NCBI RefSeq assembly: GCF_004005945.1 | Contig: NZ_SACS01000003.1 | Location: forward strand, 56,790 to 80,789 | Direction: 5' to 3' | Length of the DNA: 24,000 nt | Origin: Rheinheimera riviphila | GTDB taxonomy: Bacteria; Pseudomonadota; Gammaproteobacteria; Enterobacterales; Alteromonadaceae | In this document: positions 947-24,000 of the stretch, piece after piece | How positions within the stretch are numbered: the first letter of the stretch is position 1 | How the letters are laid out: each line of letters begins with the position of its first letter | Program-made: the position numbers and the translations under genes | The notes under the pieces: generated by a model | Told to the model about the DNA's origin: nothing | Database searches by the model: none | The model's input: only the letters and a program-made list of their open reading frames with translations

Positions 947-955
947 GGTGGTTTC

Positions 956-4345: not shown

Positions 4346-4480
4346 GTTGCTGATCCAACTGAGTGAAAAGTCCATCAACATAACAAAGCATTGACAACTC
4401 CTACAGTCACCAGCGGACAAAACTCGTTCAACGGCAGGGATTTAACGTTTAAATTCTGTGCACAGTGCAACATTGGGGCG

Positions 4481-4506
4481 AAAAAAAGGGCCGCTACTGC
4501 GACCCT
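4481..4506 (-). terminator. Rho-independent terminator of htpX
   Basis: The minus strand reads AGGGTCGC-AGTA-GCGGCCCT followed by TTTTTTT. It lies about 65 nt downstream of the htpX stop. Confidence 0.65.
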
Positions 4507-4569
4507 GAACGGTTGAGAACTGTGCCCACGCCAGCTGAAAAGCCCGGCGGATCAAGTGACTTCAATAAA

Positions 4570-5445: not shown

Positions 5446-5501
5446 GTTTACCTCTTTACTTCTGATGTTAAGACCAGCATATTTAAAATTCCTGTCCTTA
5501 C

Positions 5502-5528
5502 TATATGGTCTGATTTTTGATTTTCAAT
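5502..5528 (-). promoter_or_regulatory. Candidate sigma-32 (heat-shock) type promoter for htpX
   Basis: The minus strand reads cATTGAAA-N13-CCATATAg, compared with the remembered consensus CTTGAAA ... CCCCATnT. It lies about 55-85 nt upstream of the htpX ATG. The spacing is slightly short relative to the E. coli dnaK and groE promoters. Confidence 0.35.
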
Positions 5529-5659
5529 GTCGCCTCCACCACGATTTGTAAGCGGAAGTGTCACCGTCATGCCAAAGCCGCCAGCAAAACCTATGATGAC
5601 CCCTGCTGCAATCCCGCCAGCGCTGCCGTAGAATGCAGCAAACTTTCCCGGAGTTCTTT

Positions 5660-7042: not shown

Positions 7043-7043
7043 T

Positions 7044-7928: not shown

Positions 7929-9082
7929 CACAAAAGCGCCCTTAAACTTTGAAATAACAAGGCTAAATCTGCTTTTTGATGTAACGCTGTTAAGGTAATA
8001 CGAAGCCGTGCCTGCTGCTGCGGCACCGTTGGCGGACGAATGGCACTGAGCCAAATACCCTGCGCTCTGAGTTGCTCACTCACCACCATGGCCTTGTTGC
8101 TGTCGCCAATCAATAACGGCTGAATCGCACTATGAGATGGCAACAACGGCAAATCATATTGTCTTGCCAACTCCTGACAATATTGAATATTTTCAGCCAA
8201 ACGCTCGCGACGCCACGCATTTATGCGACATAAACGGATACTCTGGGTCATCGCCACCGCCATGGCCGGCGATAACGCGGTGCTGTAAATAAAATGCCGC
8301 GCACTTTGGGCTAAATAATCTGCCACCAATTGGGTGGTAGCCAAAAAACCGCCCTGACCGCCGAGCGCTTTACCAAAATTGGCCATCAGACACTGCGCAT
8401 CTTGAGTCGCCAGACCGGCCTGCACCAGTGACCCAGCACCTTCTGCACCTTGCACACCAATGCCGTGGGCATCGTCCAGTAACAACGGCGCCTGATACTG
8501 TTGACTCAACTTCAACAGCGTTGGTAGATCGGGCGAGTCACCATCCATACTAAAGACACCTTCGGTCGCAATGACGGCTGGCGCCTCGTGCTGGCTTTGC
8601 AGTAATTTTTGCAGCGAAACTACGTCATTATGCAAAAACCTTTTATAACCACCAGGTAACTGCAAAGCCGCATCAATCATCGAGGCATGGCTGAGTTTAT
8701 CCAGCAGCAACAGCTCGTCTTCGCCGCAGAGCCCCAATAACATTGCCTGATTGGCAGCAAAACCGGAGCTAAACAGCAGCACCGCTTCAACATTCAGCCA
8801 ATCACAGATTTCATCACAAAGCGCTTGATGCGGTTTTTGCTGGCCACTGATCAGCGGCGAGCCGGTACTGCCCACGCCAAAGTCGCTGGCGCCTTGTTGC
8901 AGCGCTGCGACGACCGCCGGGTCAGCGGATAAGCCCAGGTAATCGTTGCCGGAAAAATTTAAGAACAACTTACCCTGAAAGCTCAGGCTGGAACCTTTGA
9001 CAGCATCCAGTACTTTGAGTTGGCGCAGCAAGCCTGCCTGTTGGCGCTGTGCCAGCAACGCCTGCATCTGTTCAGCACGCAT
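7928..9082 (-). CDS. bioF: 8-amino-7-oxononanoate synthase
   Basis: NFSGNDYLGLS motif, a PLP-enzyme body (DDAHGIGV, the conserved FGKALG lysine region), about 384 aa. ATG 9082 aligns the N-terminus with E. coli BioF and has AAGG upstream. The ORF-track start at 9103 is a TTG codon. Confidence 0.9.
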   Translation of the reverse strand: MRAEQMQALLAQRQQAGLLRQLKVLDAVKGSSLSFQGKLFLNFSGNDYLGLSADPAVVAALQQGASDFGVGSTGSPLISGQQKPHQALCDEICDWLNVEAVLLFSSGFAANQAMLLGLCGEDELLLLDKLSHASMIDAALQLPGGYKRFLHNDVVSLQKLLQSQHEAPAVIATEGVFSMDGDSPDLPTLLKLSQQYQAPLLLDDAHGIGVQGAEGAGSLVQAGLATQDAQCLMANFGKALGGQGGFLATTQLVADYLAQSARHFIYSTALSPAMAVAMTQSIRLCRINAWRRERLAENIQYCQELARQYDLPLLPSHSAIQPLLIGDSNKAMVVSEQLRAQGIWLSAIRPPTVPQQQARLRITLTALHQKADLALLFQSLRALL

Positions 9083-9115
9083 CAGCAGCGCCTTGCCGGG
9101 CAATGATCATGACTA

Positions 9116-10171
9116 TCAGCTGGCAGCATGAAACAACGACGGTGTATTTTGCTCTTTAATCGCATCGGCCATCGCCGCTTCGTAAGCTTCATCCGATACG
9201 TCATGACGCTGCTCTGGCACCAAACCAAGTTTGACGAACAGTTGCATATCGGCATCGGCTTCCGGGTTTTCGGTGGTCAGCAGTTTGTCGCCGTAGAAAA
9301 TCGAATTGGCACCGGCCATAAAACACAGCGCCTGCATTTGTTCATTCATCCGCGAGCGCCCTGCTGATAACCGGACATGGCTTTTTGGCAACATGATGCG
9401 GGCAACGGCGATGGTGCGGATAAACTCAAAGCCATCCAAATCTTCAACATTTTCCAGCGGTGTACCGGCCACTTTCACCAACATGTTAATCGGTACACTT
9501 TGCGGATGCTCCGGCAAATTGGCAATTTGCATCAACAGCGCAGAGCGGTCATTGGCACTTTCGCCCATGCCGACAATACCGCCACAACAGACTTTCATCC
9601 CGGCATCCCGCACATGTGACAGCGTGTCTAACCGGTCTTGATAAGTGCGGGTGGTGATAATTTCGCCATAAAATTCCGGCGAGGTGTCGAGGTTGTGGTT
9701 GTAATAATCAAGACCTGCGCCTGCTAGTTCCTGCGCCTGACCGGCATCAAGTTTGCCCAGTGTCATACAGGTTTCCAGACCCATCGCTTTGACGCCTTTG
9801 ACCATTTCCATGATGTACGGCATATCACGCTGCTTTGGGTTACTCCAGGCGGCGCCCATACAAAAACGGCTGGCGCCTTTGTCTTTAGCCGCTTTGGCTT
9901 GAGTCAGCACTTTCTCTACTTCCAGCAAGCGCTCGCGCTCGAGGCCAGTATTGTAGTGGCCGCTTTGTGGGCAATATTTGCAGTCTTCGGCGCAAGCACC
10001 GGTTTTGATCGACAACAAAGTACTGATTTGCACTTCGCGTGGATTAAAATTGGCGCGGTGAGTCAGCTGGGCCTGAAACATCAGTTCATGAAAAGGTAAC
10101 GCAAACAAGGCGTTGACCTGCGATAAAGTCCAGTTATGACGCACTTCTGCATTCGGCATGGTAAAAGACAT
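9116..10171 (-). CDS. bioB: Biotin synthase (radical SAM)
   Basis: [27 protein letters not shown] (CxxxCxxC) and YNHNLDTS are nearly identical to E. coli BioB. ATG 10171 has an AGGAAA RBS upstream. ATG 10159 is an alternative start. Confidence 0.95.
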
Positions 10172-10300
10172 AGATCCCGGTTTCCTGTGGCGTTTTTGCA
10201 TTGTAGTTCGAATGATTTGTCGTTAGTCTAACGGCCTGCCCTTTGAAGTCAACGCCAACCAGTTTGCAATGTTTACCACTGGTTATTTATTGAGCAATTT
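10172..10300. promoter_or_regulatory. Divergent bioB / bioA promoter-operator region
   Basis: The gene arrangement is that of the E. coli bioA|bioBFCD control region. It contains a perfect 6-1-6 palindrome CGTTAG-T-CTAACG (10221-10233) and an inverted repeat AACCAGT-N14-ACTGGTT (10257-10284). No clean TTGTAAACC-type BirA operator was recognised. Confidence 0.5.
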
Positions 10301-11596
10301 ATGGCTATTGATCTGCAATTTGACCGTCAACATATCTGGCATCCCTACACATCGCTAAAAAACCCGTTGCCGGTGTATCCGGTCACTCACGCATCCGGCG
10401 TGACACTTTATCTGGAAGACGGCCGTTCGCTGATTGACGGCACGTCCAGCTGGTGGTCGGCGGTACATGGCTATAATCATCCGCAGCTAAACGCCGCCGT
10501 CACTGAGCAGCTCAGTAAAATGAGCCATGTGATGTTTGGTGGTATTACCCATCAACCGGCGGTCGATTTAGCTAAGACATTGTTATCGCTGGTGCCGGCG
10601 TCCCTTACCAAAGTGTTTTTCGCCGACAGTGGCTCGATAGCAGTAGAAGTGGCGCTGAAAATGGCGTTGCAGTTCTGGCTGGCGCAGGGCAACCCCCATA
10701 AAACTAAAATTTTAAGCCTCGCCAAGGCCTATCATGGCGATACTTTTGCTGCGATGGCGGTGTGCGATCCGGATGATGGCATGCACAGCCTGTTTCGCAG
10801 TCAGCTCACACCTCAGCTGTTTGCACCGGCGCCACAAAGCCGCTTTGATGGGCTGTGGCGGCCTGAAGATGAAACTTCACTGCGCTGGTTGTTTACTCAA
10901 CACCATCAGGAAATCGCCGCGATGATCGTCGAGCCCATTTTACAAGGCGCTGGCGGCATGCGGATGTATCACCCGCGTTATCTGCAACTGTGCCGCGAGT
11001 TATGTAATGAATTTAATGTGCTGCTGATTTGTGACGAGATTGCCACCGGCTTCGGTCGCACCGGCAGATTATTCGCCTCTGAACACGCAGCTATCGCGCC
11101 GGATATTATGTGTGTTGGTAAGGCGCTGAGTGGCGGTTACATCACGCTCGCCGCGACTTTATGCAGTGATCAAGTCGCAAACGGTATTGGTGGCACTTTA
11201 ATGCATGGACCAACTTATATGGCGAATCCGCTGGCCTGCAGCGTGGCCAATGCCAGTTTGCAAATCATCGCCAGTGGCCAATGGCAAACCCAGGTCAGCG
11301 CAATTGAGCAACAACTCAAAACCGAATTAATCGCTGCCAAAAACCTGCCGCAAGTGGCCGATGTACGGGTGCTGGGCGCAGTGGCCGTGCTGGAAATGAT
11401 GGATACAGTGGATGTGGCGTTATGTCAGCGGCTGTTTGTCGATCTCGGCGTCTGGATCCGCCCCTTTGGCCGGTTGTTGTATCTGATGCCGCCTTTTATC
11501 ATCAGCCCGCAGGAATTGCGGCAGCTGACCGGTGCCTTACTGCAGGTGGCACAGCAGCCAATTTTTACCAGCCAGCCGCCGTTGCCGGGAGCTTAA
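10301..11596 (+). CDS. bioA: Adenosylmethionine-8-amino-7-oxononanoate aminotransferase
   Basis: The N-terminus FDRQHIWHPYTS matches E. coli BioA FDQRHIWHPYTS. Class III aminotransferase body (DEIATGFGRTG, PLP Lys in CVGKALSGG). 431 aa. Confidence 0.95.
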   Translation: MAIDLQFDRQHIWHPYTSLKNPLPVYPVTHASGVTLYLEDGRSLIDGTSSWWSAVHGYNHPQLNAAVTEQLSKMSHVMFGGITHQPAVDLAKTLLSLVPASLTKVFFADSGSIAVEVALKMALQFWLAQGNPHKTKILSLAKAYHGDTFAAMAVCDPDDGMHSLFRSQLTPQLFAPAPQSRFDGLWRPEDETSLRWLFTQHHQEIAAMIVEPILQGAGGMRMYHPRYLQLCRELCNEFNVLLICDEIATGFGRTGRLFASEHAAIAPDIMCVGKALSGGYITLAATLCSDQVANGIGGTLMHGPTYMANPLACSVANASLQIIASGQWQTQVSAIEQQLKTELIAAKNLPQVADVRVLGAVAVLEMMDTVDVALCQRLFVDLGVWIRPFGRLLYLMPPFIISPQELRQLTGALLQVAQQPIFTSQPPLPGA

Positions 11597-11639
11597 ATAC
11601 AGTTGTCGACAGATGCTGAGTTAAAACCAGCGAACCGGC

Positions 11640-12014
11640 TCAAACCACCTGATATAAATAAGTTAACAAGGCTGCAGACATCGCGAGCAACACCAACACG
11701 TTATAGCGCATCCGATCATCGGTACGGCGTAACCGGGCGCGATTAAGCAATAAGCTAAGCAAACTGATCCCACAACACCACCATAGTAAATACAGCAGCT
11801 GTGGCGTCAGCTCCGGATGCCAGTATTCACGAACAGAGATGCCCCAGTAACGGACTAAACCAGATTTAAACTCCGGTTTTGCCATATGGGCAAAACCAAG
11901 CGCAGCAACAAAAGCGACCCAACCCACAATCGATAAAATACTCAAACTATGTAATAACCAGTCTGGGCCCTTACGGCGATTTTTCGGTGGCAGTGCTGGT
12001 TTTTGCTCAGTCAA
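11640..12014 (-). CDS. Small integral membrane protein, unknown function
   Basis: 124-aa ORF with about three hydrophobic helices. The only upstream start is TTG at 12014, which has a good RBS (AGGAAG, 6-nt spacer). I recognise no family. Confidence 0.55.
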
Positions 12015-12132
12015 ATCGGGCTTCCTGTCAATTTTTGCTTGTGTTGAAACGCGGCCTGCGTATGATTACACCTCTTTAGCGAAATTCACATCGAAATTCA
12101 AACCATTCAAGCAGCAAGTTGGAGCCTATTGC

Positions 12133-13533
12133 ATGACACATGCAGTGATTAAAGATGTTTTGGCCGGCAAATATGCAGTCGGCGACCTAGTTACCATTAA
12201 AGGCTGGATCCGCACCCGTCGCGATTCCAAAGCTGGTATTTCTTTCCTCGCCGTACACGACGGCAGCTGTTTTGATGCACTGCAAGCCGTCGCTCCGGCT
12301 GAACTGAATAATTACGAAACTGAAATCAAACGCCTGACTACGGCTTGCTCGGTGATTGTCAGCGGCACCATCGCTAAATCTGAAGGCCAGGGCCAATCCT
12401 TTGAAATTCAAGCTAATTTGGTTGAAGTTTTAGGTTGGGTCGAAAACCCTGATACCTACCCAATGGCACCAAAACGTCATTCGATGGAATATCTGCGCGA
12501 ACAGGCACATTTACGCTCACGGACCAACATGGTAGGCGCGATCACCCGCGTGCGCCACTGTCTGGCCCAGGCCATTCACCGCTTCTTCCATGAGCGTGGT
12601 TTTTACTGGATCAGCACGCCAATCATTACGGGTGCCGATGCTGAAGGCGCAGGTGAAATGTTCCGCGTCAGTACTTTAGACATGGAAAACCTGCCACGCG
12701 ATGACAAAGGCAAAGTGGATTACAAACAAGACTTCTTCGGTAAAGAAACCTTTTTAACGGTGTCTGGTCAGCTCAACGTTGAAACCTACGCTTGTGCATT
12801 ATCGAACGTATACACCTTCGGCCCGACTTTTAGAGCTGAAAACTCTAACACCACCCGTCACTTAGCCGAATTCTGGATGATTGAACCAGAAGTGGCATTT
12901 GCCGAACTCAAAGACGTGGCGCAACTGGCCGAAGACATGCTGAAGTATGTGTTTAACGCCGTATTGACCGAGCGCAGCGACGACATGGCATTTTTCGCCG
13001 AGCGCGTCGACGACAAAGCCATTAGCCGTCTGCAAGACATCGTCAATTCAAGCTTTGTGCGGATGGATTACACCGATGCGGTGGAAATTCTGAAAACCTG
13101 CGGCAAGAAGTTTGATTACCCGGTGGAATGGGGTGTGGATTTACAATCAGAGCACGAACGTTATTTAGCCGAAGTGCATGTTGGCGCGCCGGTTATTCTG
13201 CAAAACTATCCAAAAGACATCAAAGCCTTTTATATGCGGATGAACGAAGATGGTAAAACCGTCGCCGCCATGGATATTCTGGCACCAGGCATCGGTGAAA
13301 TCATCGGTGGTTCACAGCGTGAGGAGCGTTTAGAGCAGCTCGACGCGCGGATGGATGCAATGGGTCTGAATAAAGAAGATTACAGCTGGTATCGTGACCT
13401 GCGCCGTTACGGCACAGTACCACATGCTGGTTTTGGTCTGGGCTTTGAGCGTCTGGTGTCTTATGTGACGGGTGTGGGTAACGTACGGGATGTGATTGCC
13501 TTCCCACGGACTCCGGGCAATGCAGATTTCTAA
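12133..13533 (+). CDS. asnS: Asparagine--tRNA ligase
   Basis: 466 aa, colinear and highly similar to E. coli AsnS ([58 protein letters not shown]). A GGAG RBS is present. Confidence 0.97.
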
Positions 13534-13547
13534 GTAAAAAAACCTCG

Positions 13548-13571
13548 CGACAACAACCTGCTGTCGTTTTT
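13548..13571 (+). terminator. Rho-independent terminator (first of two) after asnS
   Basis: Stem CGACAACA / TGCTGTCG (one mismatch), loop ACC, followed by TTTTT. An A7 run lies upstream, so it may also act on minus-strand transcripts coming from the PPTase gene. Confidence 0.55.
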
Positions 13572-13576
13572 AAGTG

Positions 13577-13610
13577 AATGCCTGTCTGAAAAAAGATGGG
13601 CATTTTTTTT
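13577..13610 (+). terminator. Rho-independent terminator (second) after asnS
   Basis: 11-bp stem AATGCCTGTCT / AGATGGGCATT (two G-U pairs), 6-nt loop, followed by a T6 run. Confidence 0.65.
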
Positions 13611-13646
13611 AGCGATTTCCGGGTTCGGATCACAAGCCGGATCATC

Positions 13647-14420
13647 TTACCTGCTTCTGACTTCGGCAAGTACCTGCACCAATAGCGCTTCGGCCTGATA
13701 ATCCAGCCAGATTTCCGTGCCTGCACACCATGTTGCTGACCAGTCCACGGTCAGCTGCAGCAAAATCTGCTGACCGGTGACCGCACGTACTTCAGCAGCA
13801 TGAAACGCCATAATTTGCCGGCAATCGGGGTATAAAGCTTTATATAAAGCTTCTTTGGCGGCAAAAATTAACGTCAACAGCTGCGACTCTGACCACAGTG
13901 TCGGACCTTGTTGCTGCAGAACAAATCGCGAACACCAATGCAACTCCACAGAACTCAAAATAGCTGGCCCCAGCTCATTAAATTGCGCCTGCGTCAGCCA
14001 TTTCTCCAAATCAACCCCCAGTCGATACGCTGGCTTTGCAGCAAGTCCTGCAACCAACTCATTGCCACAGTGTGATAATGAACCTTGCTGATCTGCAGGC
14101 CACTGTGGACTGCGATCGGCCGCTGGCAATATCTGCAAAGTGCACAAACCCAGTTGCAGTTGCAGCTGTCGAAGCAATAAACGACCGGCCAGGTATTCCG
14201 CCTGACGTTGTGGCACCGCCCGACAAACTTGTGCTGGTAGCACAATGTGGTGCCGCGAGGCTAACCTGACCAGCTCAGGCTGCGGTACAAACTGAGCCCG
14301 GCTTACCAGCCAGCCTTGCCAGGTCCAGCTGCGGACGTGCTGCAAAAAACCATCCACCGGTAACTCATTGGGTAAAAAATCATCAGCGACTACTTCGCCT
14401 GTGAATAATGTTGTTGTCAT
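13647..14420 (-). CDS. 4'-phosphopantetheinyl transferase, Sfp/EntD type
   Basis: It has the diagnostic motifs PQWPADQQGSLSHCG (P-x-W-P-x-G-x-x-G-S-x-S-H), LGVDLEK (G-x-D) and FAAKEALYKAL (F/W-x-x-K-E-A-x-x-K). 257 aa. AAGGA RBS. Confidence 0.88.
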   Translation of the reverse strand: MTTTLFTGEVVADDFLPNELPVDGFLQHVRSWTWQGWLVSRAQFVPQPELVRLASRHHIVLPAQVCRAVPQRQAEYLAGRLLLRQLQLQLGLCTLQILPAADRSPQWPADQQGSLSHCGNELVAGLAAKPAYRLGVDLEKWLTQAQFNELGPAILSSVELHWCSRFVLQQQGPTLWSESQLLTLIFAAKEALYKALYPDCRQIMAFHAAEVRAVTGQQILLQLTVDWSATWCAGTEIWLDYQAEALLVQVLAEVRSR

Positions 14421-14580
14421 CTACTGAGTCCTTTGAATATCTTCAGCGGTAAACGTCGCCATCCATCCGGTATGCCAACGGTTTATCGGCTGACAATGCT
14501 GTCAGTCACATGCCAAAGCGCCCCCCGAAGTAGCCGATTACAGTAACACTCCCTGACCACACTTCTGACAAGGAGCTTTT

Positions 14581-15372
14581 ATGTCTGCGATGTTATACCA
14601 ACCCCGTTTACTGATCCCCAGCCTTGGGATCATCTTCAGCCTGCACAGCCCTGTACTAACCGCAGAACCATGGCAATTCGAAGCCGGTGCCGGTGTTATC
14701 AGTCAGCAACAGGTCTGGAAAAAAATGCCAACTGTCACCTCCGCAGTACCGTATTTTTCAGCGAGCAAAGGCCCATGGCGCATTGGCATTGATGGCGGCA
14801 ATCTCATAAGTTACAGTTTTTATCAGGACGAAGCTTTCCGCCTCTACGCCGGCGTTGGCATCCGCGATAACGGTTATGATGCCGATACCAGCCTGAGCTC
14901 TGATTTATCTGACGATCCGGTGTTTAGCGGCTATCAGGCTCCCAATACTGAGATCACCAGCGCCGTTGGATTCAGTTGGCATTGGATTTCACTACAACTA
15001 GCACAGCAACTGAACGACGTTCGGACAGCACAAGTTGTTGATTTGGCAATTGAACTACCATTGTACCAACACAACTCCGGCTTACGTTTGATGGCGAACA
15101 TCGCGGCCAGTTGGATGAACGAAGATTATACCCAACGTATTTATGGCGTTGCACCCGGCAATCAGAATCTAAGCGTGAACCGGCCGGTATTTCAAACCGA
15201 AGCTGAAGTGAACTACAGCTTGAATCTCCGTGTTCAATATCCGCTCAGTACACAAACGATGCTGCTTGGCAGTACCGGCGTTACACAGCTGGCCGACAAT
15301 TTACAAAAAAGTCCGCTTGTCGGCGAAGAGCAAAGCCTCGATGCAATGTTACTGGTGGTATACCGCTTTTAA
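14581..15372 (+). CDS. MipA/OmpV-family outer-membrane beta-barrel protein
   Basis: Signal peptide, an alternating beta-strand pattern, a C-terminal ...SPLVGEEQSLDAMLLVVYRF with terminal aromatic residue, and a size (263 aa) typical of MipA/OmpV proteins. A strong AAGGAG RBS is present. Confidence 0.7.
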   Translation: MSAMLYQPRLLIPSLGIIFSLHSPVLTAEPWQFEAGAGVISQQQVWKKMPTVTSAVPYFSASKGPWRIGIDGGNLISYSFYQDEAFRLYAGVGIRDNGYDADTSLSSDLSDDPVFSGYQAPNTEITSAVGFSWHWISLQLAQQLNDVRTAQVVDLAIELPLYQHNSGLRLMANIAASWMNEDYTQRIYGVAPGNQNLSVNRPVFQTEAEVNYSLNLRVQYPLSTQTMLLGSTGVTQLADNLQKSPLVGEEQSLDAMLLVVYRF

Positions 15373-15380
15373 CCGTTGTT

Positions 15381-15435
15381 GCTGACTTCAGTGCAAAAAT
15401 CCCGCCTTGTTGCGGGCTTCTGCATTGAAGTCAGC
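15381..15435. terminator. Large nested hairpin between convergent mipA-like and NRPS genes (likely bidirectional terminator)
   Basis: Outer 15-bp stem GCTGACTTCAGTGCA / TGCATTGAAGTCAGC (one G-U pair). It encloses an inner GC stem CCCGC-cttgtt-GCGGG. On the minus strand the inner stem is followed by ATTTTTG. Confidence 0.5.
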
Positions 15436-15474
15436 TGTTCGTCTTGCCACCAGACTCATTGCACCTGACACGAT

Positions 15475-15504
15475 GATGCAACCGATCCGCAGATCGGTTG
15501 CATC
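15475..15504 (-). other. Perfect 13-bp stem / 4-nt loop hairpin just after the NRPS stop codon
   Basis: GATGCAACCGATC-cgca-GATCGGTTGCATC, 8 nt downstream of the NRPS stop at 15512. No U-tract follows on either strand, so it may be an mRNA 3' stabiliser or processing element rather than a terminator. Confidence 0.45.
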
Positions 15505-15511
15505 CCTATCG

Positions 15512-18500
15512 TCACACTGACGACAACAACTGAATCAACTTCTGCGCCAGCGCCGGAGCAGACAACATGGTTAAGTGATCGCCGGCGACTTGCTGTAACT
15601 GCAAATTGCCTTTTAGATATTGCTTCAGTTGTCGGCGTAGATGGGTACGCGGATGTGCGGTAGCGAAATCATCACCATAAATAAGTACCGCCGGGCCGTG
15701 AAATTTCGGACCAGGCTTAAACTGCCGGTACAATTCAGCCTGAGCGCTGGCAACTGCTAGCAGCGCATCAAGCTCAGTCTGCCAGTCGTCCGTCGGCAAT
15801 AAACCCGCCTGCTGCATCAGTTGCACCAAAGCGCCACGGTACTGCGCTGGGTCACTGAATTCCAGAGCTGGTTGTGCCATTGCCCGGCACAGCAGCTGGT
15901 ACATTTCACTGCAAGCATCCAGCACATCACCGGTATCTGCCATTGGTCGTAAATCGACATCCAACAGACACAAGGTGACCTGTTCGCCCTGTGCTTCGAG
16001 CATACAGGCGAGCTGATAAGCGATGCGTCCGCCGAGCGAATGACCGGCGATGTGATAAGGTCCCTGCGGCTGTGCCCGGCGCAATGCCTGCAGATAGTCG
16101 CTGGTCAGGGTTGCCCAATCCTGATGCGGGTTTTGCAGGCCAAGCCGGCCCTGCGGTTCTGCAACCTGCACCTGTGCATTGCCACGCAACTGACGCGCCA
16201 GCGGCAGCATGGCAGCACTGATCGCGCCAGCGCCCGGGATCACCCACCATTCGGGTAATCCGGCCTGAGGTTCCAGTACGACCCAGCGTACGCTATCATC
16301 CTGCGACCGCGTGTGGTCTTCATGCTGTAGCAGAGCGGCACTGAGATGGTCGGCCAGACGACGAATGTCAGGGTTGTGAAACAAATCAGCCAGACTGAGC
16401 ACTGGCCACTGTCTCGTCCGCCCTTGGCTGTTTAACAGCTGCATCAAGCGAATACTGAGTAACGAATGACCGCCCAGTTCAAAGAAGCTGACTGTCACGT
16501 CCGGCACCTGCTGTTCCAACACCTGTTGAAAAATCTGCTGCAACACCAGTTCCAGCTCAGTTGCTGGCGGCTGGCTAATCTGCCTTGTCGGTTGTGGCGA
16601 CGGCAGTGCCTTGCGGTCAATTTTGCCATTACTGTTGAGCGGAAAATTGTCCAGCTCCAGCCAATACGCCGGTTGCATATATGCCGGTAACTGCTGCTGC
16701 AGATATGTGCGCAAACTGTGTTCGTCGTCGGTAACACCGGCACAACGCTGCCAATACAGTACCAACTGTGGTTGCTCACGGACGGTCAGGACAAGAGCTA
16801 CAGCTTGCTCAACTGCCGGATGCTGGCGCAACTGGCTTTCAATATCGCCAAGCTCAATCCGAAAGCCATTGATTTTAACCTGATGATCAAGCCTTCCCAA
16901 AAACGCCAACTGACCGCCAGGTAACTGTCGCACCAGATCGCCTGTGCGATACATGGTCTGTGTTGACGTTGAAAACGGATCGGGTAAAAAATGCCGTGCC
17001 GTTAAATCTGGTCTGTTGCGATAACCCGCAGCCACGCAGGGTCCACTCAGATAGAGTTCACCGGCGACACCGGGTGGTTGCAGTAAACCCGCAGGACTCA
17101 ACACATAACTGCGCACCCCGGGCAACAGATCACAAACCGGCGCCACACCTTGCCCGGCAAAGTCGTCTTCACTGCGGATTGGCGCGGCCGACACCCAAAT
17201 AGTCGCTTCGGTCGGTCCATAAACATTCCACAGGGTGCCGCCACCGGATAGCAGCTGCAACGCCAATGGCTTACTCAGAGCTTCGCCACCACACAACATG
17301 GTCAGCCCAGGCCTGCTCTGCCAGCCAGAAAGTATCAATCCTTGCCAGGTGGCAGGTGTTGCCTGCAGTAACCGGATCTCAAACCGATCCAGCCATTGCT
17401 GTAACAACAACGGATCACGTGCCTCCTCGCTTTGCATCAGTACAGTGCGCCCGCCCCACAGCAGCGGCAGCCACAACTCCAATACCGAAATATCAAAGGT
17501 AACCGTGGTGATGGCGAGCATTGCCTGCTGCGGCTGAAAACCAATCCTGGCGGCGATCTGATTCAGGCATTCCAGCACCGAGCTCAGATACACCTGCACG
17601 CCTTTGGGCTGACCGGTTGAGCCTGAAGTATAAATCAGGTAAGCCAGTGGATCGGCCGGCAACAGCAGCTCTGGCGCAGTTGATGGTTGCTGTTGCAGCG
17701 TTCGCAGCAGTTCCGGGGCATCCAGCACCCAAAGTGCCGTAGCGAGTGCTGGATCTGTTGATAACGTCTTTAAGTTCAACTGTTGTGCGAGCGCCTGATA
17801 ACAGCGACTCGCCAGCGTCAGCTGCACGTCGGCATCCAACAATACCGCCTGCTGCCTCGCCGCTGGCTGTGTGGGGTCTAGCGGCACATAAGCGCAGCCC
17901 AACTTCCAGAGCGCCAGAATTGCCATTGGCAACTGATGATCACGGCGCAATAGCAACGCAACACGCTGCGTCGGCCTGATCCCTATCGCATACAAAGCGT
18001 GTGCCAGTTGATTGGCGCCGGCTTCAAGCTGCTGGTAACTGAGCGCATGCAGTGGATCGGCCACCGCGATCTGATCCGCGTGCTGCACCTGTTGCTGATG
18101 CCACTGCGTCAATAAATCGGTGTGGCGGGAAAAGCTCAGCCGATCTTCAGTTAACACCGGTTGTTTTGCCAATAGCAGTTGCTGCTGTTGCGGACTGAGC
18201 ACTGGTAAACGACCCAGCGACCGTAGCGCTTCAATACGTACCTGCTGCAACGTCAACAGCAATGCATCAAGCAATGCGTTGGCGGTACGTTCACTAAACA
18301 AAGCGCAGGCATAATCAAGCCGTAGTCGCAGCTGCTGTTCCTGCACCTGCAAATTCAGACTGAGATCAAAACGTGCGAGTACTGCGTCTGGTTGTATTAA
18401 AGTGATTCCATGTGCCTGCAGTGCAGTGTCATCCGACACGTCCATGGCCATAAAGATTTGGAAAAGCGGATGGATCGCGGCTTCGCGCGGCGGATTCAGT

Positions 18501-21500
18501 GCTGCAACCAGTAATTCGAATGGATAATCCTGATATTGCTGGGCCTGGTGCAGCTGCTGCCGGCTTTGTTCCAGCAGCGCCGTGAAATGTTGCGCCGGAT
18601 CACAATCAAGTCGCAACACCAGGGTGTTAACAAAAAATCCAACCAGATCCTGCAAACTGGCCTGCGTCCGGTTGAGTACCGGCGTGCCGATCACAATATC
18701 GCGTTGTCCGCTCCAGCGTGCCAGCACATGAGCAAAAGCGGCGTGGCATAGCGAAAACAAACTGGTCTGATGGCTGAGCGCAAATTGTTGTAACTCCTGC
18801 AGTTCTTCCCGATTGATCATCAGACTGATGCTGGCACCCCGATGGTCAGGTAACACCGGTCTGGGGAAATCGAGTGGCAAAGCATGCACCGGCGGCAATT
18901 GTGCCAGTGTCGTGTTGAAATAGTGCGCCGCCTGGGCAAAATATCCCGCTTGCGCCAGCGCCTGTTGCCACAACGCGTAATCACCATATTGCAGCGTCAA
19001 CACCGGAACTGAAGCATCTCCATGCTGCAGTTGCTGATAGCAACGCAGCAAGCCGTTGATCAGCAAGTCTACCGACCAGCCATCGCCGGCAATGTGATGC
19101 AGATTAAACAATAAGAACTGTGTTTCGCCACTGTCGACCAGTGCCAGCCGCCACATCAGATCAGCCTGCAGGTCAAACGGCGTGTCGGCGTGTTTTGCTG
19201 CGACAGCACTGAGATCTGCACGCCCGGCAATACTCAGCCGCTGAAGCGAGAACTTTGCATCCGGCATCACCCGTTGCCAGCTCTGGCCGTCCTGCTCCAC
19301 CATGACGGTACGCAGGATTTCATGTTGCGCGGTCAGCAGATTTGCCGCTTGTTCCAATATGTCCGCGTCCAGTGGCTCCAACAGTTGCAATGTGGCGCTG
19401 ATGTGATACTGCGCCGAGCCAGGTTGTAGTTGTTCGATAAACCACAGCCGTTGCTGGCTGAACGACAACGGCAGCAACTGCGCCTCATTCGTTGCGATTA
19501 TCGTCCTGTTGCCGGCCTCTTCACTCGCTACCGCAGCGTTGGCTACACTCGCCCTGGCGACCAATAACGGCCAGTGCTGTTCATCCTCCTGCAACAGTCT
19601 GGCCATCGCCGCCAGTTCACTGTGCTGAAAAATATCACGCACGGCCAGCTCACGCCCAAACTGCTGACGGATCAAGGCCAGTAACCGGATCGATAGCAAC
19701 GAGTGCCCGCCCAGCGCGAAAAAGTCACTGCGCCTGCTCTGCACGGCAACACCCAGCAATTGTTGCCAGAGCTGCGCCAATTGTTGCTCGGCAGCGGTGG
19801 CCGGCGGCTCACCGGCACTGTGGGCAAACGCCGTGTCAGCTGGTTGTGGTAAGGCTTTGCGGTCAATTTTACCATTGGGCAATAGCGGCCATTCCGCCAG
19901 TTGATGTAATGCCGCAGGCAACATAAACTGCGGCAGTTTGCGGCTTAAATACTGACGCAGTGCCTGAATATCGACCTGATGATCAGCCCGTAAGTACGCC
20001 AGCAAACGCCAGCTGCCTTGTGGTTGATCGGCCACGACCAGTGCACTACAGACCCCCCGATATTGCAAAATCTGCGCTTCGATATCGCTGAGTTCAATCC
20101 GGAAACCATTCAGTTTGACCTGATCGTCTTCACGACCAAAAAACTCCAGCTGATCATCGCTGTTCCAACGCGCCAGATCACCACTGTGATACCACAGATC
20201 GCCGTTGCTACTAACGGCGATACCCAGCGGATCCTGACAAAATACGGCCGCTGTTTGTTCAGCACGTCGCAGATACCCCTGACTGACGCCGGGACCGGCA
20301 ATCCACAATTGACCGATAGCACCAGGTGGTAACAGCCGGCGATCTGCGTCGAGGATATAACAACGATTCATGCCAACCGGCCGCCCCAGCGGAATTTGAT
20401 GTTGGCGCGGTTGCACGGAGGAGATCGGATAACAAGTGGCCGTCACCGTTGTTTCGGTTGGACCATAGGCGTTGATCAAGCGAATGTGACTGGCGGTGCT
20501 TTGCAGCCAACGCCGTACCTGTTGCAACGGAGCCGCTTCACCGCCAATAATCACCAGTCGCAGTGCCGGATCAAAAGTATCTGGCAAGGCAGTGGTCAGC
20601 TCGCTCCAAAATGCTGTGGGCAAGTTCAGCACTGACAGCTGGCAGGCTTGCACCTGTTGCCAGAACGACGCCGGACTATCGATCCAGTTTTCCTGGCGCA
20701 ATACCAGACAAGCGCCGCTGTACCAACTGGCAAAAATTTCTTCAATTGAAATATCAAAGTTAATGCTGCTGAACTGCAGCACCCGATCGGTGGATTGCAG
20801 CTGATAAGCTTGTTTCATCGAATGCGCCAGATGCAACAACTGCGGTTGCCCCACCATCACCCCTTTTGGCGTACCGGTCGATCCCGAGGTATAAATCAAA
20901 TATGCCACCGCGTCCGCAGAAGGCAATAAAAGCACAGTGGTCTGCAGCGCCGGCAATTGCTCTGCACTGAACCAGTCAGCCCAACATTGCTGCAGTACCC
21001 GGCAACGCGGTACAAAAACAGGCTGCTCAGCCTGGTCAAATCGCTGCGCCTGCGTGGGTTCGGTCAGCACTAAGACCGGTTGTGCATCCTGTATAATTTG
21101 CTGTAGCCGTTCATCCGGATAAGCCGGATCCAGCGGCAGATAAACAGCACCTAGTCGCAATAACGCCAGCACAGTCACCAACAACGGCACTGAACGCTGC
21201 AAACACAAAGCTACCACCGCGCCTTCAACGATCCCGTCCCGCTGCAGCGCAGCGGCGACCACCTGACTTTGTTGCCACAACTGCTGATAACTGAGCGCCG
21301 TAGCGCCGTGCTGTAACGCTGTGGCTGCCGGGGTGTCAAGGGCGAATTGTTGCAACTGCGCCAGCAATGTCGCCGCACCGGTGTTGGCTTCAGTGTCGGT
21401 GACAAATGACTCCAAAGTTGGCGCGGTACCATGTCCTGTCAACAGCGATACGCGCTGCGCTGCCGATAACGCATCCAGTTGGTCCCATCGTTGCTGCGAA

Positions 21501-24000
21501 CTGTGCAGCATTTGTTGTAATAACGCCTGATAACTTGCAGCCAGCCGCTTGATGGTCGTCGCACTGAACAAGTCCGCGTTGTACTCAAATGCAAACTCAA
21601 AAGCGTTGCTTTCGGTGCTGACTTCCAGTGTCAGCTCAAATCGGGCATGTTGCTCGGCGCCGCTGGCTTTGCTCAGGCTTACATCGGCAAATTGCATGTC
21701 GGCAAGGCCGGGCGGGTCCATGCTAAACATGATCTGAAACAGCGGCGAATACTGACTTTGTCGTACCGGCTGCAACGCTTCGACCAGCTTCTCAAACGGA
21801 TATTCCTGATGTTGTTGTGCTTGTGCCACCTGTTGCTGCACCTGATGCAGCAGCTCTGCCAGTGTGAGAGCAGGATCCAGTTGCTGGCGTAGCACCAGCG
21901 TATTGACAAAAAAGCCGGCCAGATTGCCAAGCTCGGGTTGAGCGCGGTTGGCGACCGGCGTGCCAATAACCAAATCGCGGCTCTGGCTGTATTTTTCCAG
22001 CAACAGATAAAAAGCGCTCAGCAACACCGTAAACAAACTGACCTGCTGCTGCCTGGCGAACTGTACCAATTCAGTGCTGTGTTGTGTTGCCAACGTAAAT
22101 GCATGCCAGCCACCATGGTGGCTTGGTTGCTCCGGCCGGTCAAAGTCCAATGGCAACTGGTGCACTGGCGGGGCATCTTCCAGCACCTGTTGCCAGAAGC
22201 TGAGCTGTTGTTGCCAGTGCCGCTGAACGTCCGGGCTTTGTTGCCACAACACATAATCGCTGTATTGTAACGGCAGGGGTGGCAATGTTTCAGCGCTGGC
22301 AGTGCCGGCGTTGGCTTGGCACAGTGCCTGGTACAAAGTGGCGAACTCAGTGGCGAGTACGGCCATCGACCAACCATCGGTTGCGATATGATGCAGATTC
22401 AGCACCAGTAAACCGCGTTCTGGTGCAGTCTGCAGCCACCATGCCCGCAGTTTGATGTCGGTTGCCAGGTCAAAAGGCAATGCCAGCAAAGCTGCAACCT
22501 GTTGTTGCACCTCGCTTTCGTGGCAGTGTTGCAAATCACGTTGCTGCACTAACGAAGCTGGTAACGGCAACGGCTGTTGCCACAGCTGACCGTCGTCGTC
22601 TTCAGACAGACCAAAGTGCAGTGGCTGATGGCGTGCCAGTAACGTCATTAACGCCTGATCAGCGAACTTTGCCACAAATGGCCCCGTTACCTGCCAGACC
22701 AGCGGTACATGGTACATGCGCTGTCCGGCGGACCAGCGTTCAACAAACCACAGTCGTTGTTGCGACGCTGACAGCGGATAACGAGCCTGGGGCGGCAAGG
22801 CTTTCAGAGATGGGATGGCTGGAGCTGCGATGTTGGGATCACGCACCGCAGCGTCAATACGACAGGCTAACTCCGCCAGATCGGTGCTGCCAATCACTGC
22901 GGCCAATCCGAGCTCAACCGGCCAGTGCTGCTGGATCTGCGACAATAAACGGGCCGCGAGCAAACTATGACCACCGAGCGCATAAAAATTGTCATGCCTG
23001 CCGACTTGTGCTGCTTGCAATAGCTGCTGCCAGATTGTCGCCAGCAGCCGTTCAGTCGCACCTTGCGGCGGTTCAAACAGTGTCCGCTGATAATCATCTG
23101 CTGCCGGTAACGGTAACGCTTGTTTGTCCAGTTTGCCATTGGCGGTCAGTGGCAATTTAGCCAGAATCACCAGTGCAGCGGGCACCATATAGTCCGGCAA
23201 AGTGGCCCGAAGCGCGGTCCGGACTTCGTCACAGACATTGGCTGGTGCCACCAGGTAAGCGATCAGTTCGGCATCGGCACCAGCGCCAAGCACCCGCACT
23301 GCGGCCTCACGCACCTGTGGTTGAGCCAGCAATACCGCCTCAATTTCCGCAAGTTCGATCCGAAAGCCGCGCAGCTTAACCTGGTGATCAATCCGTCCCA
23401 GATATTGCAATTGACCTTCCGGTAACCAGCGCACCAGATCGCCGGTACGGTACAACTGACCCGCGGCAAAGGGATTGGGAATAAACTTTTCCGCATTCAG
23501 TTCCGGCCGCTGCAAGTAACCCGCGCCAACCCCGGGGCCGCCAATCAGTAATTCGCCGGGGACACCAGGTGGCACCGGGCTCAGCGCATTGTCCACAACG
23601 TAGAGCCGGGCTTCGGCGACGCTACCTCCCATTTGCATCCTCACAAAATCTGGCGGCAACTGGCCCTGAGTACAATAAATGGATGTTTCGGTCGGACCAT
23701 AACTGTTCAATAAACATCGGCCTTCTGCCCAAAGCCTGGCGAGTACATCCGGGCAGGCTTCACCGCCGATCAGCAAAGTACGGACACTTCGCCAGGCTGT
23801 TACGTCCAGATACGGCAGCAACGCCGGTGTCATCAAGGCATGGGTCAGTTGATCACGCGCGACCACCTGGTCTAACGCTGCCGGATCACGTACCACAGCT
23901 GCCGGATACATATACAAAGTTGCGCCACTGCACAGTGCCCAGAAAAACTCCACCAGACCCGCGTCAAAGCTGAATGAAGCAAATTGCAGCACCCGACTGC
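15512..24000 (-). CDS. Non-ribosomal peptide synthetase, C-terminal portion (partial A)-T-C-A-T-C-A-T-TE; the 5' end lies outside the window
   Basis: A single 8.5-kb frame. The ORF-track M at 23992 is an internal GTG. The frame stays open to base 24000 (..SRVLQFASFSFD, an A4-region motif). Three sets of A-domain core motifs, three GGHSL carrier sites, two HHIAxDGWS condensation motifs and a terminal GHSLGG / GDH thioesterase were read directly. Confidence 0.95.
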   Translation of the reverse strand, partial: SRVLQFASFSFDAGLVEFFWALCSGATLYMYPAAVVRDPAALDQVVARDQLTHALMTPALLPYLDVTAWRSVRTLLIGGEACPDVLARLWAEGRCLLNSYGPTETSIYCTQGQLPPDFVRMQMGGSVAEARLYVVDNALSPVPPGVPGELLIGGPGVGAGYLQRPELNAEKFIPNPFAAGQLYRTGDLVRWLPEGQLQYLGRIDHQVKLRGFRIELAEIEAVLLAQPQVREAAVRVLGAGADAELIAYLVAPANVCDEVRTALRATLPDYMVPAALVILAKLPLTANGKLDKQALPLPAADDYQRTLFEPPQGATERLLATIWQQLLQAAQVGRHDNFYALGGHSLLAARLLSQIQQHWPVELGLAAVIGSTDLAELACRIDAAVRDPNIAAPAIPSLKALPPQARYPLSASQQRLWFVERWSAGQRMYHVPLVWQVTGPFVAKFADQALMTLLARHQPLHFGLSEDDDGQLWQQPLPLPASLVQQRDLQHCHESEVQQQVAALLALPFDLATDIKLRAWWLQTAPERGLLVLNLHHIATDGWSMAVLATEFATLYQALCQANAGTASAETLPPLPLQYSDYVLWQQSPDVQRHWQQQLSFWQQVLEDAPPVHQLPLDFDRPEQPSHHGGWHAFTLATQHSTELVQFARQQQVSLFTVLLSAFYLLLEKYSQSRDLVIGTPVANRAQPELGNLAGFFVNTLVLRQQLDPALTLAELLHQVQQQVAQAQQHQEYPFEKLVEALQPVRQSQYSPLFQIMFSMDPPGLADMQFADVSLSKASGAEQHARFELTLEVSTESNAFEFAFEYNADLFSATTIKRLAASYQALLQQMLHSSQQRWDQLDALSAAQRVSLLTGHGTAPTLESFVTDTEANTGAATLLAQLQQFALDTPAATALQHGATALSYQQLWQQSQVVAAALQRDGIVEGAVVALCLQRSVPLLVTVLALLRLGAVYLPLDPAYPDERLQQIIQDAQPVLVLTEPTQAQRFDQAEQPVFVPRCRVLQQCWADWFSAEQLPALQTTVLLLPSADAVAYLIYTSGSTGTPKGVMVGQPQLLHLAHSMKQAYQLQSTDRVLQFSSINFDISIEEIFASWYSGACLVLRQENWIDSPASFWQQVQACQLSVLNLPTAFWSELTTALPDTFDPALRLVIIGGEAAPLQQVRRWLQSTASHIRLINAYGPTETTVTATCYPISSVQPRQHQIPLGRPVGMNRCYILDADRRLLPPGAIGQLWIAGPGVSQGYLRRAEQTAAVFCQDPLGIAVSSNGDLWYHSGDLARWNSDDQLEFFGREDDQVKLNGFRIELSDIEAQILQYRGVCSALVVADQPQGSWRLLAYLRADHQVDIQALRQYLSRKLPQFMLPAALHQLAEWPLLPNGKIDRKALPQPADTAFAHSAGEPPATAAEQQLAQLWQQLLGVAVQSRRSDFFALGGHSLLSIRLLALIRQQFGRELAVRDIFQHSELAAMARLLQEDEQHWPLLVARASVANAAVASEEAGNRTIIATNEAQLLPLSFSQQRLWFIEQLQPGSAQYHISATLQLLEPLDADILEQAANLLTAQHEILRTVMVEQDGQSWQRVMPDAKFSLQRLSIAGRADLSAVAAKHADTPFDLQADLMWRLALVDSGETQFLLFNLHHIAGDGWSVDLLINGLLRCYQQLQHGDASVPVLTLQYGDYALWQQALAQAGYFAQAAHYFNTTLAQLPPVHALPLDFPRPVLPDHRGASISLMINREELQELQQFALSHQTSLFSLCHAAFAHVLARWSGQRDIVIGTPVLNRTQASLQDLVGFFVNTLVLRLDCDPAQHFTALLEQSRQQLHQAQQYQDYPFELLVAALNPPREAAIHPLFQIFMAMDVSDDTALQAHGITLIQPDAVLARFDLSLNLQVQEQQLRLRLDYACALFSERTANALLDALLLTLQQVRIEALRSLGRLPVLSPQQQQLLLAKQPVLTEDRLSFSRHTDLLTQWHQQQVQHADQIAVADPLHALSYQQLEAGANQLAHALYAIGIRPTQRVALLLRRDHQLPMAILALWKLGCAYVPLDPTQPAARQQAVLLDADVQLTLASRCYQALAQQLNLKTLSTDPALATALWVLDAPELLRTLQQQPSTAPELLLPADPLAYLIYTSGSTGQPKGVQVYLSSVLECLNQIAARIGFQPQQAMLAITTVTFDISVLELWLPLLWGGRTVLMQSEEARDPLLLQQWLDRFEIRLLQATPATWQGLILSGWQSRPGLTMLCGGEALSKPLALQLLSGGGTLWNVYGPTEATIWVSAAPIRSEDDFAGQGVAPVCDLLPGVRSYVLSPAGLLQPPGVAGELYLSGPCVAAGYRNRPDLTARHFLPDPFSTSTQTMYRTGDLVRQLPGGQLAFLGRLDHQVKINGFRIELGDIESQLRQHPAVEQAVALVLTVREQPQLVLYWQRCAGVTDDEHSLRTYLQQQLPAYMQPAYWLELDNFPLNSNGKIDRKALPSPQPTRQISQPPATELELVLQQIFQQVLEQQVPDVTVSFFELGGHSLLSIRLMQLLNSQGRTRQWPVLSLADLFHNPDIRRLADHLSAALLQHEDHTRSQDDSVRWVVLEPQAGLPEWWVIPGAGAISAAMLPLARQLRGNAQVQVAEPQGRLGLQNPHQDWATLTSDYLQALRRAQPQGPYHIAGHSLGGRIAYQLACMLEAQGEQVTLCLLDVDLRPMADTGDVLDACSEMYQLLCRAMAQPALEFSDPAQYRGALVQLMQQAGLLPTDDWQTELDALLAVASAQAELYRQFKPGPKFHGPAVLIYGDDFATAHPRTHLRRQLKQYLKGNLQLQQVAGDHLTMLSAPALAQKLIQLLSSV
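15515..16291 (-). other. NRPS type I thioesterase (release) domain
   Basis: GHSLGG nucleophile elbow (Ser codon 16037..16039). The LLDVD Asp lies about 27 residues later. The GDHLTML His codon is at 15575..15577. The domain is at the extreme C-terminus. Confidence 0.85.
16349..16567 (-). other. NRPS thiolation (PCP) domain 3
   Basis: VSFFELGGHSLLSIRL. The Ser codon is at 16463..16465. Confidence 0.85.
16604..18121 (-). other. NRPS adenylation domain (terminal module), predicted glycine-activating
   Basis: LIYTSGSTGQPKGV (A3), FDISVLE (A4), NVYGPTEATIW (A5), YRTGD (A7), GRLDHQVKINGFRIELGDIE (A8), NGKIDRK (A10). The hand-derived specificity code is DILQLGVIWK. Confidence 0.8.
18209..19480 (-). 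other. NRPS condensation domain 2
   Basis: LSFSQQRLWF (C1), AQHEILRT (C2-like), HHIAGDGWS with first His codon at 19097..19099. Boundaries are approximate. Confidence 0.8.
19589..19807 (-). other. NRPS thiolation (PCP) domain 2
   Basis: SDFFALGGHSLLSIRL. The Ser codon is at 19700..19702. Confidence 0.85.
19850..21385 (-). other. NRPS adenylation domain (module n-1)
   Basis: LIYTSGSTGTPKGV (A3), FDISIEE (A4), NAYGPTETT (A5), YHSGD (variant A7), GREDDQVKLNGFRIELSDIE (A8), NGKIDRK (A10). Boundaries are approximate. Confidence 0.85.
21479..22783 (-). other. NRPS condensation domain 1
   Basis: C1 motif LSASQQRLWF. The C3 motif HHIATDGWS has its first His codon at 22391..22393. About 435 aa, ending before the LSAAQRVSLL linker. 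Boundaries are approximate. Confidence 0.8.
22853..23077 (-). other. NRPS thiolation (PCP) domain 1
   Basis: DNFYALGGHSLLAARL. The phosphopantetheine-attachment Ser codon is at 22964..22966. Confidence 0.85.
23114..24000 (-). other. NRPS adenylation domain (module n-2), C-terminal two thirds only
   Basis: Motifs FSFDAG (A4), NSYGPTETS (A5), GELLIGGPGVGAGY (A6), YRTGD (A7), GRIDHQVKLRGFRIELAEIE (A8), NGKLDK (A10). The A1-A3 motifs lie beyond the window edge. Confidence 0.85.

Follow-up and report, generated by a model that had tools for sequence, protein, structure and literature searches.

The NRPS reading frame and its domains

The 24,000-nucleotide stretch analyzed here (the window; Rheinheimera riviphila contig NZ_SACS01000003.1, positions 56,790 to 80,789) ends in a long gene for a nonribosomal peptide synthetase (NRPS). 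On the minus strand, one reading frame runs from position 23998 to a stop codon at 15512 to 15514, giving 2,828 codons with no internal stops, and it is still open at base 24000. Pfam placed three AMP-binding domains (with AMP-binding_C), three PP-binding domains, two Condensation domains, and one Thioesterase domain along the encoded protein, which is markedly glutamine rich, in the order (partial A)-T-C-A-T-C-A-T-TE (A, adenylation; T, carrier; C, condensation; TE, thioesterase). The features of the gene are listed below, with the evidence in parentheses.

15512..24000, minus strand: NRPS gene, C-terminal 2,828 codons plus stop codon, probably EOE67_04230/RVU40793, with ~750 codons beyond 24000 (open frame, Pfam, collinear alignment, locus-tag numbering)
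23099..24000, minus strand: A1 adenylation domain, from motif A4 (FDAGLVE) to A10, signature DAVLLGSIYK (motifs, motif-anchored signature)
22856..23050, minus strand: T1 carrier domain, Ser345 in GGHSL (Pfam, motif scan)
21464..22786, minus strand: C2 condensation domain, HHIATDG, LCL-like (Pfam, comparison with solved structures)
19844..21352, minus strand: A2 adenylation domain, signature DIENIGAVTK, predicted Arg-like (cationic) (pocket comparison)
19592..19786, minus strand: T2 carrier domain, Ser1433 (Pfam, motif scan)
18170..19480, minus strand: C3 condensation domain, HHIAGDG, LCL-like (Pfam, comparison with solved structures)
16604..18115, minus strand: A3 adenylation domain, signature DILQLGVIWK, predicted glycine (pocket comparison)
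16355..16549, minus strand: T3 carrier domain, Ser2512 (Pfam, motif scan)
15536..16240, minus strand: TE thioesterase domain, GHSLG / LLDVD / GDH (PF00975, alignment to solved TEs)

A motif scan located the carrier motif GGHSL at amino acids 342, 1430, and 2509 of the window protein and the condensation motif at amino acids 536 (HHIATDG) and 1634 (HHIAGDG). A2 and A3 carry core motifs A3 to A10, and the truncated A1 carries A4 to A10; the sequences seen were LIYTSGSTG.PKG, FD.S..E, N.YGPTE, Y(R/H)(T/S)GD, GR.D.QVK, and NGK.D(R/K). The TE domain (PF00975, 6.5e-19) has its nucleophilic serine in GHSLG at amino acid 2652, and in alignments its triad of Ser (GHSLG), Asp region (LLDVD), and His (GDH) matched up with solved thioesterases. 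Pfam detected no extra epimerization (E), methyltransferase (MT), or cyclization (Cy) domain in the window protein, each of the two Condensation stretches preceding an A domain, and the motif scan did not find the dual E/C signature HH[IL]xxxxGD there.

An open frame of 8.5 kb with domains in this order could not have arisen by chance. The A motifs, carrier serines, HHxxxDG motifs, and TE Ser-Asp-His triad that characterize a type I modular, TE-terminated NRPS were all found. By every testable defining feature, the window protein is a linear, TE-terminated type I NRPS, and it is predicted to form a product. A preliminary description, drawn from the letters of the window, had reported this uninterrupted frame and domain order, the intactness of all catalytic motifs (three GGHS, two HHxxxDG, and the TE Ser-Asp-His), and the absence of epimerization, methylation, and cyclization domains from the visible part. 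Our open reading frame (ORF) and Pfam analyses, motif scans, and TE alignment confirmed each of these points.

Full length, conservation, and genomic setting of the gene

When genomes were scanned with the 399 residues at the visible N-terminal end as the query, three close relatives emerged (76 to 82% identity). The most complete lies on a 407-kb contig of R. texasensis (L002; metagenome-assembled genome contig NZ_CAXIRE010000022.1), where the NRPS occupies positions 7751 to 18406 as a single 3,551-amino-acid ORF with the order C-A-T-C-A-T-C-A-T-TE. The window protein was collinear with this ORF from residue 751 to 3551 (75% identity). Three further Rheinheimera-like contigs (L120, L121, and L124), reached via MATE homologues, have the same arrangement, with NRPSs of 3,566, 3,566, and 3,543 amino acids. 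These orthologues share the domain order of the window protein and align collinearly with it at ~75% identity, and none has a known product. A MATE exporter gene directly precedes the NRPS gene in the orthologous loci, at a distance of 33 to 47 nucleotides (nt) (33 nt in L002).

In R. riviphila, EOE67_04225/RVU40792 denotes the neighboring MipA protein, and EOE67_04235/RVU40794, on the same contig, denotes the MATE orthologue (79% identical); by this numbering, a single locus tag (04230) and a single protein accession (RVU40793) lie between them and fall to the NRPS. Since pseudogenes receive no protein accession, RVU40793 should be one intact coding sequence. Judging from the orthologues, the part beyond base 24000 would encode a conserved helix of 42 amino acids, an Ala/Pro-rich linker of variable sequence, a single C domain with the motif HHAISDG, and the front third of A1. 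Because the orthologues have three modules and the collinear region starts at residue 751, ~750 residues, with no further module, are expected outside the window. We conclude that the R. riviphila NRPS probably has three modules in all, in a protein of ~3,570 amino acids with the organization N-terminal helix-C-A1-T-C-A2-T-C-A3-T-TE. The preliminary description had taken the visible modules for only the last three of a giant NRPS that probably had more. Neither part of this held up: the single-gene orthologues are 3,543 to 3,566 amino acids long with exactly three modules, one locus tag separates the MipA gene from the MATE gene, and the three modules in view are probably the full set.

Codon alignments of the window NRPS with three orthologues gave ratios of nonsynonymous to synonymous substitution rates (dN/dS, or omega) of 0.09 to 0.10 overall and 0.05 to 0.22 per domain, with saturated dS (1.6 to 2.1). 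In the orthologues, the N-terminal C domain and N-terminal helix had omega values of 0.08 to 0.16, and the linker drifts (34 to 39% identity). A dN/dS of ~0.1 in every domain indicates a working gene, and on this measure the NRPS gene is functional and under purifying selection in every domain. The preliminary view of a functional assembly line rather than a relic is thereby upheld, by the intact motifs and by a dN/dS of ~0.10 against three orthologues. That the gene is a decaying relic, or silent and nonfunctional, is scarcely credible. No product is known for it, and many such clusters are silent in culture, as are Rheinheimera clusters for peptides that are synthesized ribosomally and modified posttranslationally (RiPPs) (PMC11626197), but decay is hard to square with 8.5 kb lacking stops or frameshifts, with the intactness of every catalytic motif, and with a dN/dS of ~0.1 at saturated dS against three lineages. 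The accession RVU40793, which falls to the NRPS gene by the numbering and which a pseudogene would not have been given, also speaks against it.

The genes that adjoin the NRPS gene downstream, and the boundary of the region, are as follows.

15401..15416, minus strand: terminator-like GC hairpin plus T run, ~96 nt past the NRPS stop codon (consensus scan only)
14581..15372, plus strand: MipA/OmpV-family outer-membrane protein RVU40792 (EOE67_04225), 76% identity in R. texasensis, travels with the NRPS
13647..14420, minus strand: EntD/Sfp-type 4′-phosphopantetheinyl transferase (PPTase) RVU40791, 58% identity in R. texasensis, travels with the NRPS
13534..13646, no strand: variable-island boundary, where homology to contig L125 ends at the asnS stop codon (13533) (blastn against L125 and the L125 gene table)

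Contig L125, from a related Rheinheimera, matches positions 2071 to 13533 of the window at 84 to 90% nucleotide identity, the match ending exactly at the asnS stop codon. Past asnS, L125 has a cysteine-desulfurase/rhodanese gene, fadR, and dsbB in place of the PPTase, MipA, and NRPS genes (breakpoint at L125:8365-8457). The orthologous loci differ in insertion site: the PPTase-MipA-NRPS cassette adjoins prmA in R. texasensis and asnS in the window. R. texasensis has the same MATE, MipA, and PPTase neighbors; for L120, L121, and L124, whose contigs cover the MATE side and not the downstream side of the NRPS gene, the MATE neighbor is shared. Since the cassette is absent beside asnS in this related Rheinheimera, the NRPS locus is, by comparison of these contigs, a variable island. 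The G+C content of the NRPS region (0.54 to 0.575 at positions 16001 to 24000) versus the housekeeping flank (0.47 to 0.53 at positions 1 to 15000) is consistent with island acquisition.

Upstream of the MATE gene, all orthologous loci carry a divergent operon that encodes an ABC ATPase, an LolC/E-like FtsX permease, an LolA-like protein, a probable outer-membrane protein of 415 to 447 amino acids, an LytS-type kinase, an LytTR regulator, a 218-amino-acid lipoprotein, and a type II thioesterase. The divergent ABC/MATE promoter of all these loci contains a conserved direct repeat, TTCATCA-N15-TTCATCA, with 22 bp from start to start (L002:6110-6138; ~9869-9897 in L120, L123, and L124; in R. riviphila, outside the window). 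A Fur box is matched in this promoter region at 13/19 positions at best. We take a TTCATCA repeat with 22-bp spacing to fit LytTR-type sites, and the same locus encodes an LytS/LytTR pair; the repeat fits sites of this type better than it fits iron control.

Predicted peptide core and chain initiation

Substrates were predicted by comparing pocket segments (motifs A4 to A5) with solved structures, since whole-domain queries did not discriminate and placed LgrA at the top of every list. Signatures came from motif-anchored extraction, and position 278 of A2 was fixed as N by an ungapped count and the ApnA numbering (W277 and S278 in ...WSLPT...; PMC5311044). The A2 and A3 signatures are identical in all orthologues, and that of A1 shows conservative swaps at two positions (DAALLGSIYK in L002; DAVLVGSIYK in L120, L121, and L124). 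A literature search for the signature strings gave no match.

The A3 pocket was nearest that of AB3403 (4ZXH/4ZXI; 114 bits), whose crystal structure was obtained with glycine (PMC10510592). The A domain of 5U89 followed (83 bits), and the pocket blocks FDIS.LE, LQATPATW, LCGGEAL, and WNVYGPTE.T.W are common to A3 and these two. The A3 signature, DILQLGVIWK, is one position off DILQLGLIWK, which was read from 5U89 and which we take to be the canonical Gly code, and the predicted substrate of A3 is glycine. The A2 pocket was nearest A1 of ApnA (4D4G; 101 bits) and then CmnG (74 bits), a protein of the capreomycin pathway that presumably loads capreomycidine, an Arg-derived residue. The A2 signature DIENIGAVTK has Glu at position 239. 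ApnA A1 is an Arg/Tyr-activating domain that has been solved with arginine and with tyrosine (PMC10510592; PMC5311044). This domain of the anabaenopeptin synthetase (4D4G-4D57) has E239, I299, G301, LPTA(F/Y)W, and RLVIIGGE in common with the A2 pocket; it belongs to a cyanobacterial line for a six-residue ureido-cyclopeptide, however, and residues 236, 278, 322, 330, and 331 differ, so the specificity may differ as well. With moderate confidence, A2 is predicted to activate an Arg-like cationic residue. For A1, the GrsA and TycA (Phe) pockets came nearest, but they scored only ~65 bits and depart from A1 at six pocket residues; the A1 substrate can be predicted with low confidence as hydrophobic and probably aliphatic.

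C-domain subtypes were assigned from similarity to solved structures, a proxy for phylogeny. C2 scored 227 bits against Txo1/Txo2 and 196 bits against TycC6, versus 87 bits against SrfA-C (DCL); C3 scored 238 bits against Txo1 and 190 bits against TycC6, versus at most 83 bits against DCL-type references. Taken together, the two domains gave 226 to 238 bits with Txo1/Txo2, against 79 bits with TycB1, also of the DCL type. Both domains thus resemble LCL rather than DCL domains. An epimerizing line was rejected, given that there is no E domain or dual E/C motif and that C2 and C3 are LCL-like. LCL-type C2 and C3 domains and the lack of epimerization together point to an all-L X-(Arg-like)-Gly tripeptide core released by the TE.

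The N-terminal C domain, seen in the orthologues, has the catalytic motif HHAISDG in all of them and is 33 to 34% identical to C2 and C3. It scored 246 bits against TycC6, 198 against Txo2, and 176 against LgrA, all LCL structures, versus 61 (CDA-C1), 50 (SrfA-A), and 47 (RzmA) bits against three solved starter C domains. Starter-C lipopeptide synthetases such as SrfA-A, RzmA, and the CDA PSI synthetase likewise begin with a C domain and need no loading A-T or fatty acyl-AMP ligase (FAAL) if acyl-CoA is the donor, and the locus under study has dedicated exporters. The gap between the starter scores (47 to 61 bits) and the LCL scores (176 to 246 bits) led us to reject a lipo-initiating synthetase of this kind.

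The 42-amino-acid Gln/Leu-rich N-terminal helix, PALLA.F.QQLAR.SQMQQLMSVQLQQL (L002:7751-8035), is 78 to 88% identical in the orthologues and is under purifying selection; a freely varying Ala/Pro-rich linker of ~50 amino acids sits between it and the first C domain. The helix looks like a docking or coiled-coil element. Neither the flanks of the orthologues (10 kb upstream, 2.7 kb downstream) nor the 15.5 kb downstream in the window contained an A domain, a carrier protein, an FAAL, or another NRPS. The only feature of the system that we regard as mildly unusual is that the N-terminal C domain is of the elongation type and follows a conserved leader helix in a locus with no gene for a donor. 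Because the locus encodes no donor-loading enzyme, the donor is most likely supplied in trans, as an acyl thioester from primary metabolism or from an unlinked carrier.

The same observations could be read differently, with the protein as the last subunit of a longer multiprotein line whose N-terminal C domain and docking helix take the chain from an unlinked NRPS or A-T pair, so that the product exceeds three residues. The closeness of the N-terminal C domain to elongation domains (TycC6, 246 bits; LgrA, 176 bits) rather than starter domains (47 to 61 bits) suits such a line, as does the docking-like succession of a conserved helix (78 to 88% identity, omega of ~0.1) and a freely evolving linker, and EntF and AB3403 set a precedent, both being fed by free-standing A and carrier proteins (PMC10510592). 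Set against these points are the lack of any NRPS, A domain, or carrier protein in the flanks just described and the movement of the locus as a self-contained island with its own PPTase, type II thioesterase, exporters, and regulators. On balance, we consider a longer line unlikely.

We favor, with a probability of about 0.62, the reading that R. riviphila has a single, self-contained three-module NRPS of which the window holds the C-terminal four-fifths. The adjacent Sfp/EntD-type PPTase would convert the three carrier domains to the holo form. The residue loaded by A1 would be aliphatic or hydrophobic, that loaded by A2 cationic and Arg-like, and that loaded by A3 glycine. Linked by the two LCL-type C domains without epimerization, the three would form an all-L chain, X-(Arg-like)-Gly, on T3, to be freed by the TE through hydrolysis, cyclization, or oligomerization. 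The intact N-terminal C domain (HHAISDG), which is under selection, would most likely attach an acyl group, or some other donor supplied in trans, to the first residue as a cap. The product could leave through the cotranscribed MATE pump, the divergent set of Lol-like ABC, LolA-like, and outer-membrane proteins, or both; the LytS/LytTR pair probably controls the divergent promoter region, and the type II thioesterase may serve in editing.

Several points weigh against this proposal. For the 2.2 kb of the gene upstream of the visible part, the three-module claim for R. riviphila leans on accession numbering and orthologues, and it was only in the orthologues that accessory genes were observed upstream of MATE. 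With an LCL-type N-terminal C domain, delivery of a peptidyl or aminoacyl donor by an unlinked protein is no less plausible than acyl capping. The A2 prediction draws on pocket similarity to a single Arg/Tyr-bispecific enzyme, and for A1 there is essentially no substrate prediction.

A bolder variant would make the product a new small exported peptide with an unusual start, in which a nonstarter C domain caps the chain with a thioester from primary metabolism or the enzyme reuses its own tripeptidyl chain to give (X-Arg-Gly)n, with sensing by LytS/LytTR and Lol-like export; we think this quite unlikely. If true, it would be a Gram-negative NRPS-made signal or surface-active peptide.

Read from its sequence and that of its relatives, the self-contained synthetase is a genuine, intact, orphan three-module NRPS of ordinary size on a variable island. 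It corrects the scope first given to the gene, in that the three modules make up the whole synthetase rather than the end of a giant line. The genus Rheinheimera is common in fresh and brackish water, and the island is compact, with one 10.7-kb NRPS gene and a PPTase (together with a type II thioesterase, exporters, and a two-component regulator in the orthologues). Such a compact, self-contained island is an easy target for heterologous expression, and the predicted hydrophobic-Arg-Gly core is small enough to be confirmed by synthesis.

Known synthetases and the remainder of the window

No characterized relative was found in comparisons with NCBIfam cutoffs or in protein, genome, and metagenome searches. 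None of the NCBIfam equivalogs reached its cutoff (EntF, 976 versus 2,400; MxcG, 1,059 versus 2,300), nor did the models of other named synthetases (AusA, 1,348 versus 2,500; SolG, 1,075 versus 2,200; PRK05691, 1,616 versus 4,090). Outside Rheinheimera-type relatives, the best identities were 35 to 48% in searches with a 629-amino-acid C-terminal query (all listed matches to which were shorter than ~1,100 amino acids), the genome scan, and a metagenome scan, saturated with a generic A8 pattern, in which no identity exceeded 48%. The preliminary statement that the NRPS could not be matched to a known product stands, with no NCBIfam equivalog at cutoff and at most ~48% identity beyond Rheinheimera-type relatives. 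For the genus, a 2024 study lists as characterized products only diketopiperazines, the pigment glaukothalin, and its own RiPPs, reports that no NRPS product has been characterized, and mentions NRPS clusters that are unassigned (PMC11626197).

AB3403 (ABBFA_003403) of Acinetobacter baumannii, the nearest match to the A3 pocket (114 bits), likewise ends in C-A-T-TE. It has just one module, however, and receives its donor from a free-standing A domain and carrier protein, whereas the window NRPS has three fused modules and no such partners in its locus, and outside the pocket the likeness is generic.

The aryl-capped siderophore NRPSs EntF, DhbF, and MxcG resemble the window NRPS in having an N-terminal elongation-type C domain with a trans donor, TE release, and an EntD-like PPTase, but they differ from it in that its locus has no aryl-acid or iron uptake genes and no convincing Fur box and its scores fall below the cutoffs. 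The gene might still be thought to encode a synthetase of the EntF/DhbF/VabF type for a siderophore, catecholate or otherwise. Such an enzyme would attach an aryl cap, such as 2,3-dihydroxybenzoate (DHB) made by unlinked ent-like genes, to a cationic peptide, the plan seen in vanchrobactin and chrysobactin. Siderophores of the DHB-Arg/Lys/Orn-Ser type exist, and the predicted Arg-like residue recalls them; the EntD-like PPTase next door, the partial NCBIfam matches to EntF and MxcG, and the LCL-like N-terminal C domain add to the resemblance. Against it, all NCBIfam siderophore models lie far below their cutoffs (EntF, 976/2,400; MxcG, 1,059/2,300), the best Fur-box match is only 13/19, and the window and orthologous loci (the loci only, not the rest of the genome) contain no entABCE-like, TonB-dependent receptor, or ferric-siderophore transporter genes. 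The missing ent, TonB, and uptake genes, together with the subthreshold EntF and MxcG scores and the poor Fur box, make a siderophore very unlikely, and identification as a siderophore synthetase was rejected on the NCBIfam cutoffs and the 13/19 match.

Outside the NRPS locus, the window holds housekeeping genes: a tricorn-like S41 protease, htpX, pepE, bioBFCD/bioA, and asnS. The SYLF (RVU40780), HtpX (RVU40782), BioA (RVU40788), and AsnS (RVU40790) proteins matched R. riviphila proteins of the same contig exactly, and so did RVU40789, the PPTase (RVU40791), and MipA (RVU40792). Scans of the window for Rfam families and tRNAs found none. The protease gene (956-4420, minus strand) encodes a periplasmic-type protein of 1,154 amino acids with TolB-like beta-propeller repeats and an S41 C-terminal-processing peptidase, which the L125 gene table lists as Tricorn-like. 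Between bioA and asnS lies a gene for a 124-amino-acid protein (RVU40789, EOE67_04210; 11640-12014, minus strand) that had no Pfam or NCBIfam match and is conserved within Rheinheimera, its 90% identity cluster numbering 24 members. L125 has an extra 102-amino-acid ORF (~477 bp) between this gene and bioA, which the window lacks.

As longest-ORF calls, bioC (336 amino acids; 7044-8054) and bioF (7928-9103), both on the minus strand, overlap by 127 nt; the BioC call in L125 has 295 amino acids, and translation of bioC therefore probably begins at a codon within the ORF listed here. The divergent arrangement of bioA and bioBFCD is like that of E. coli.

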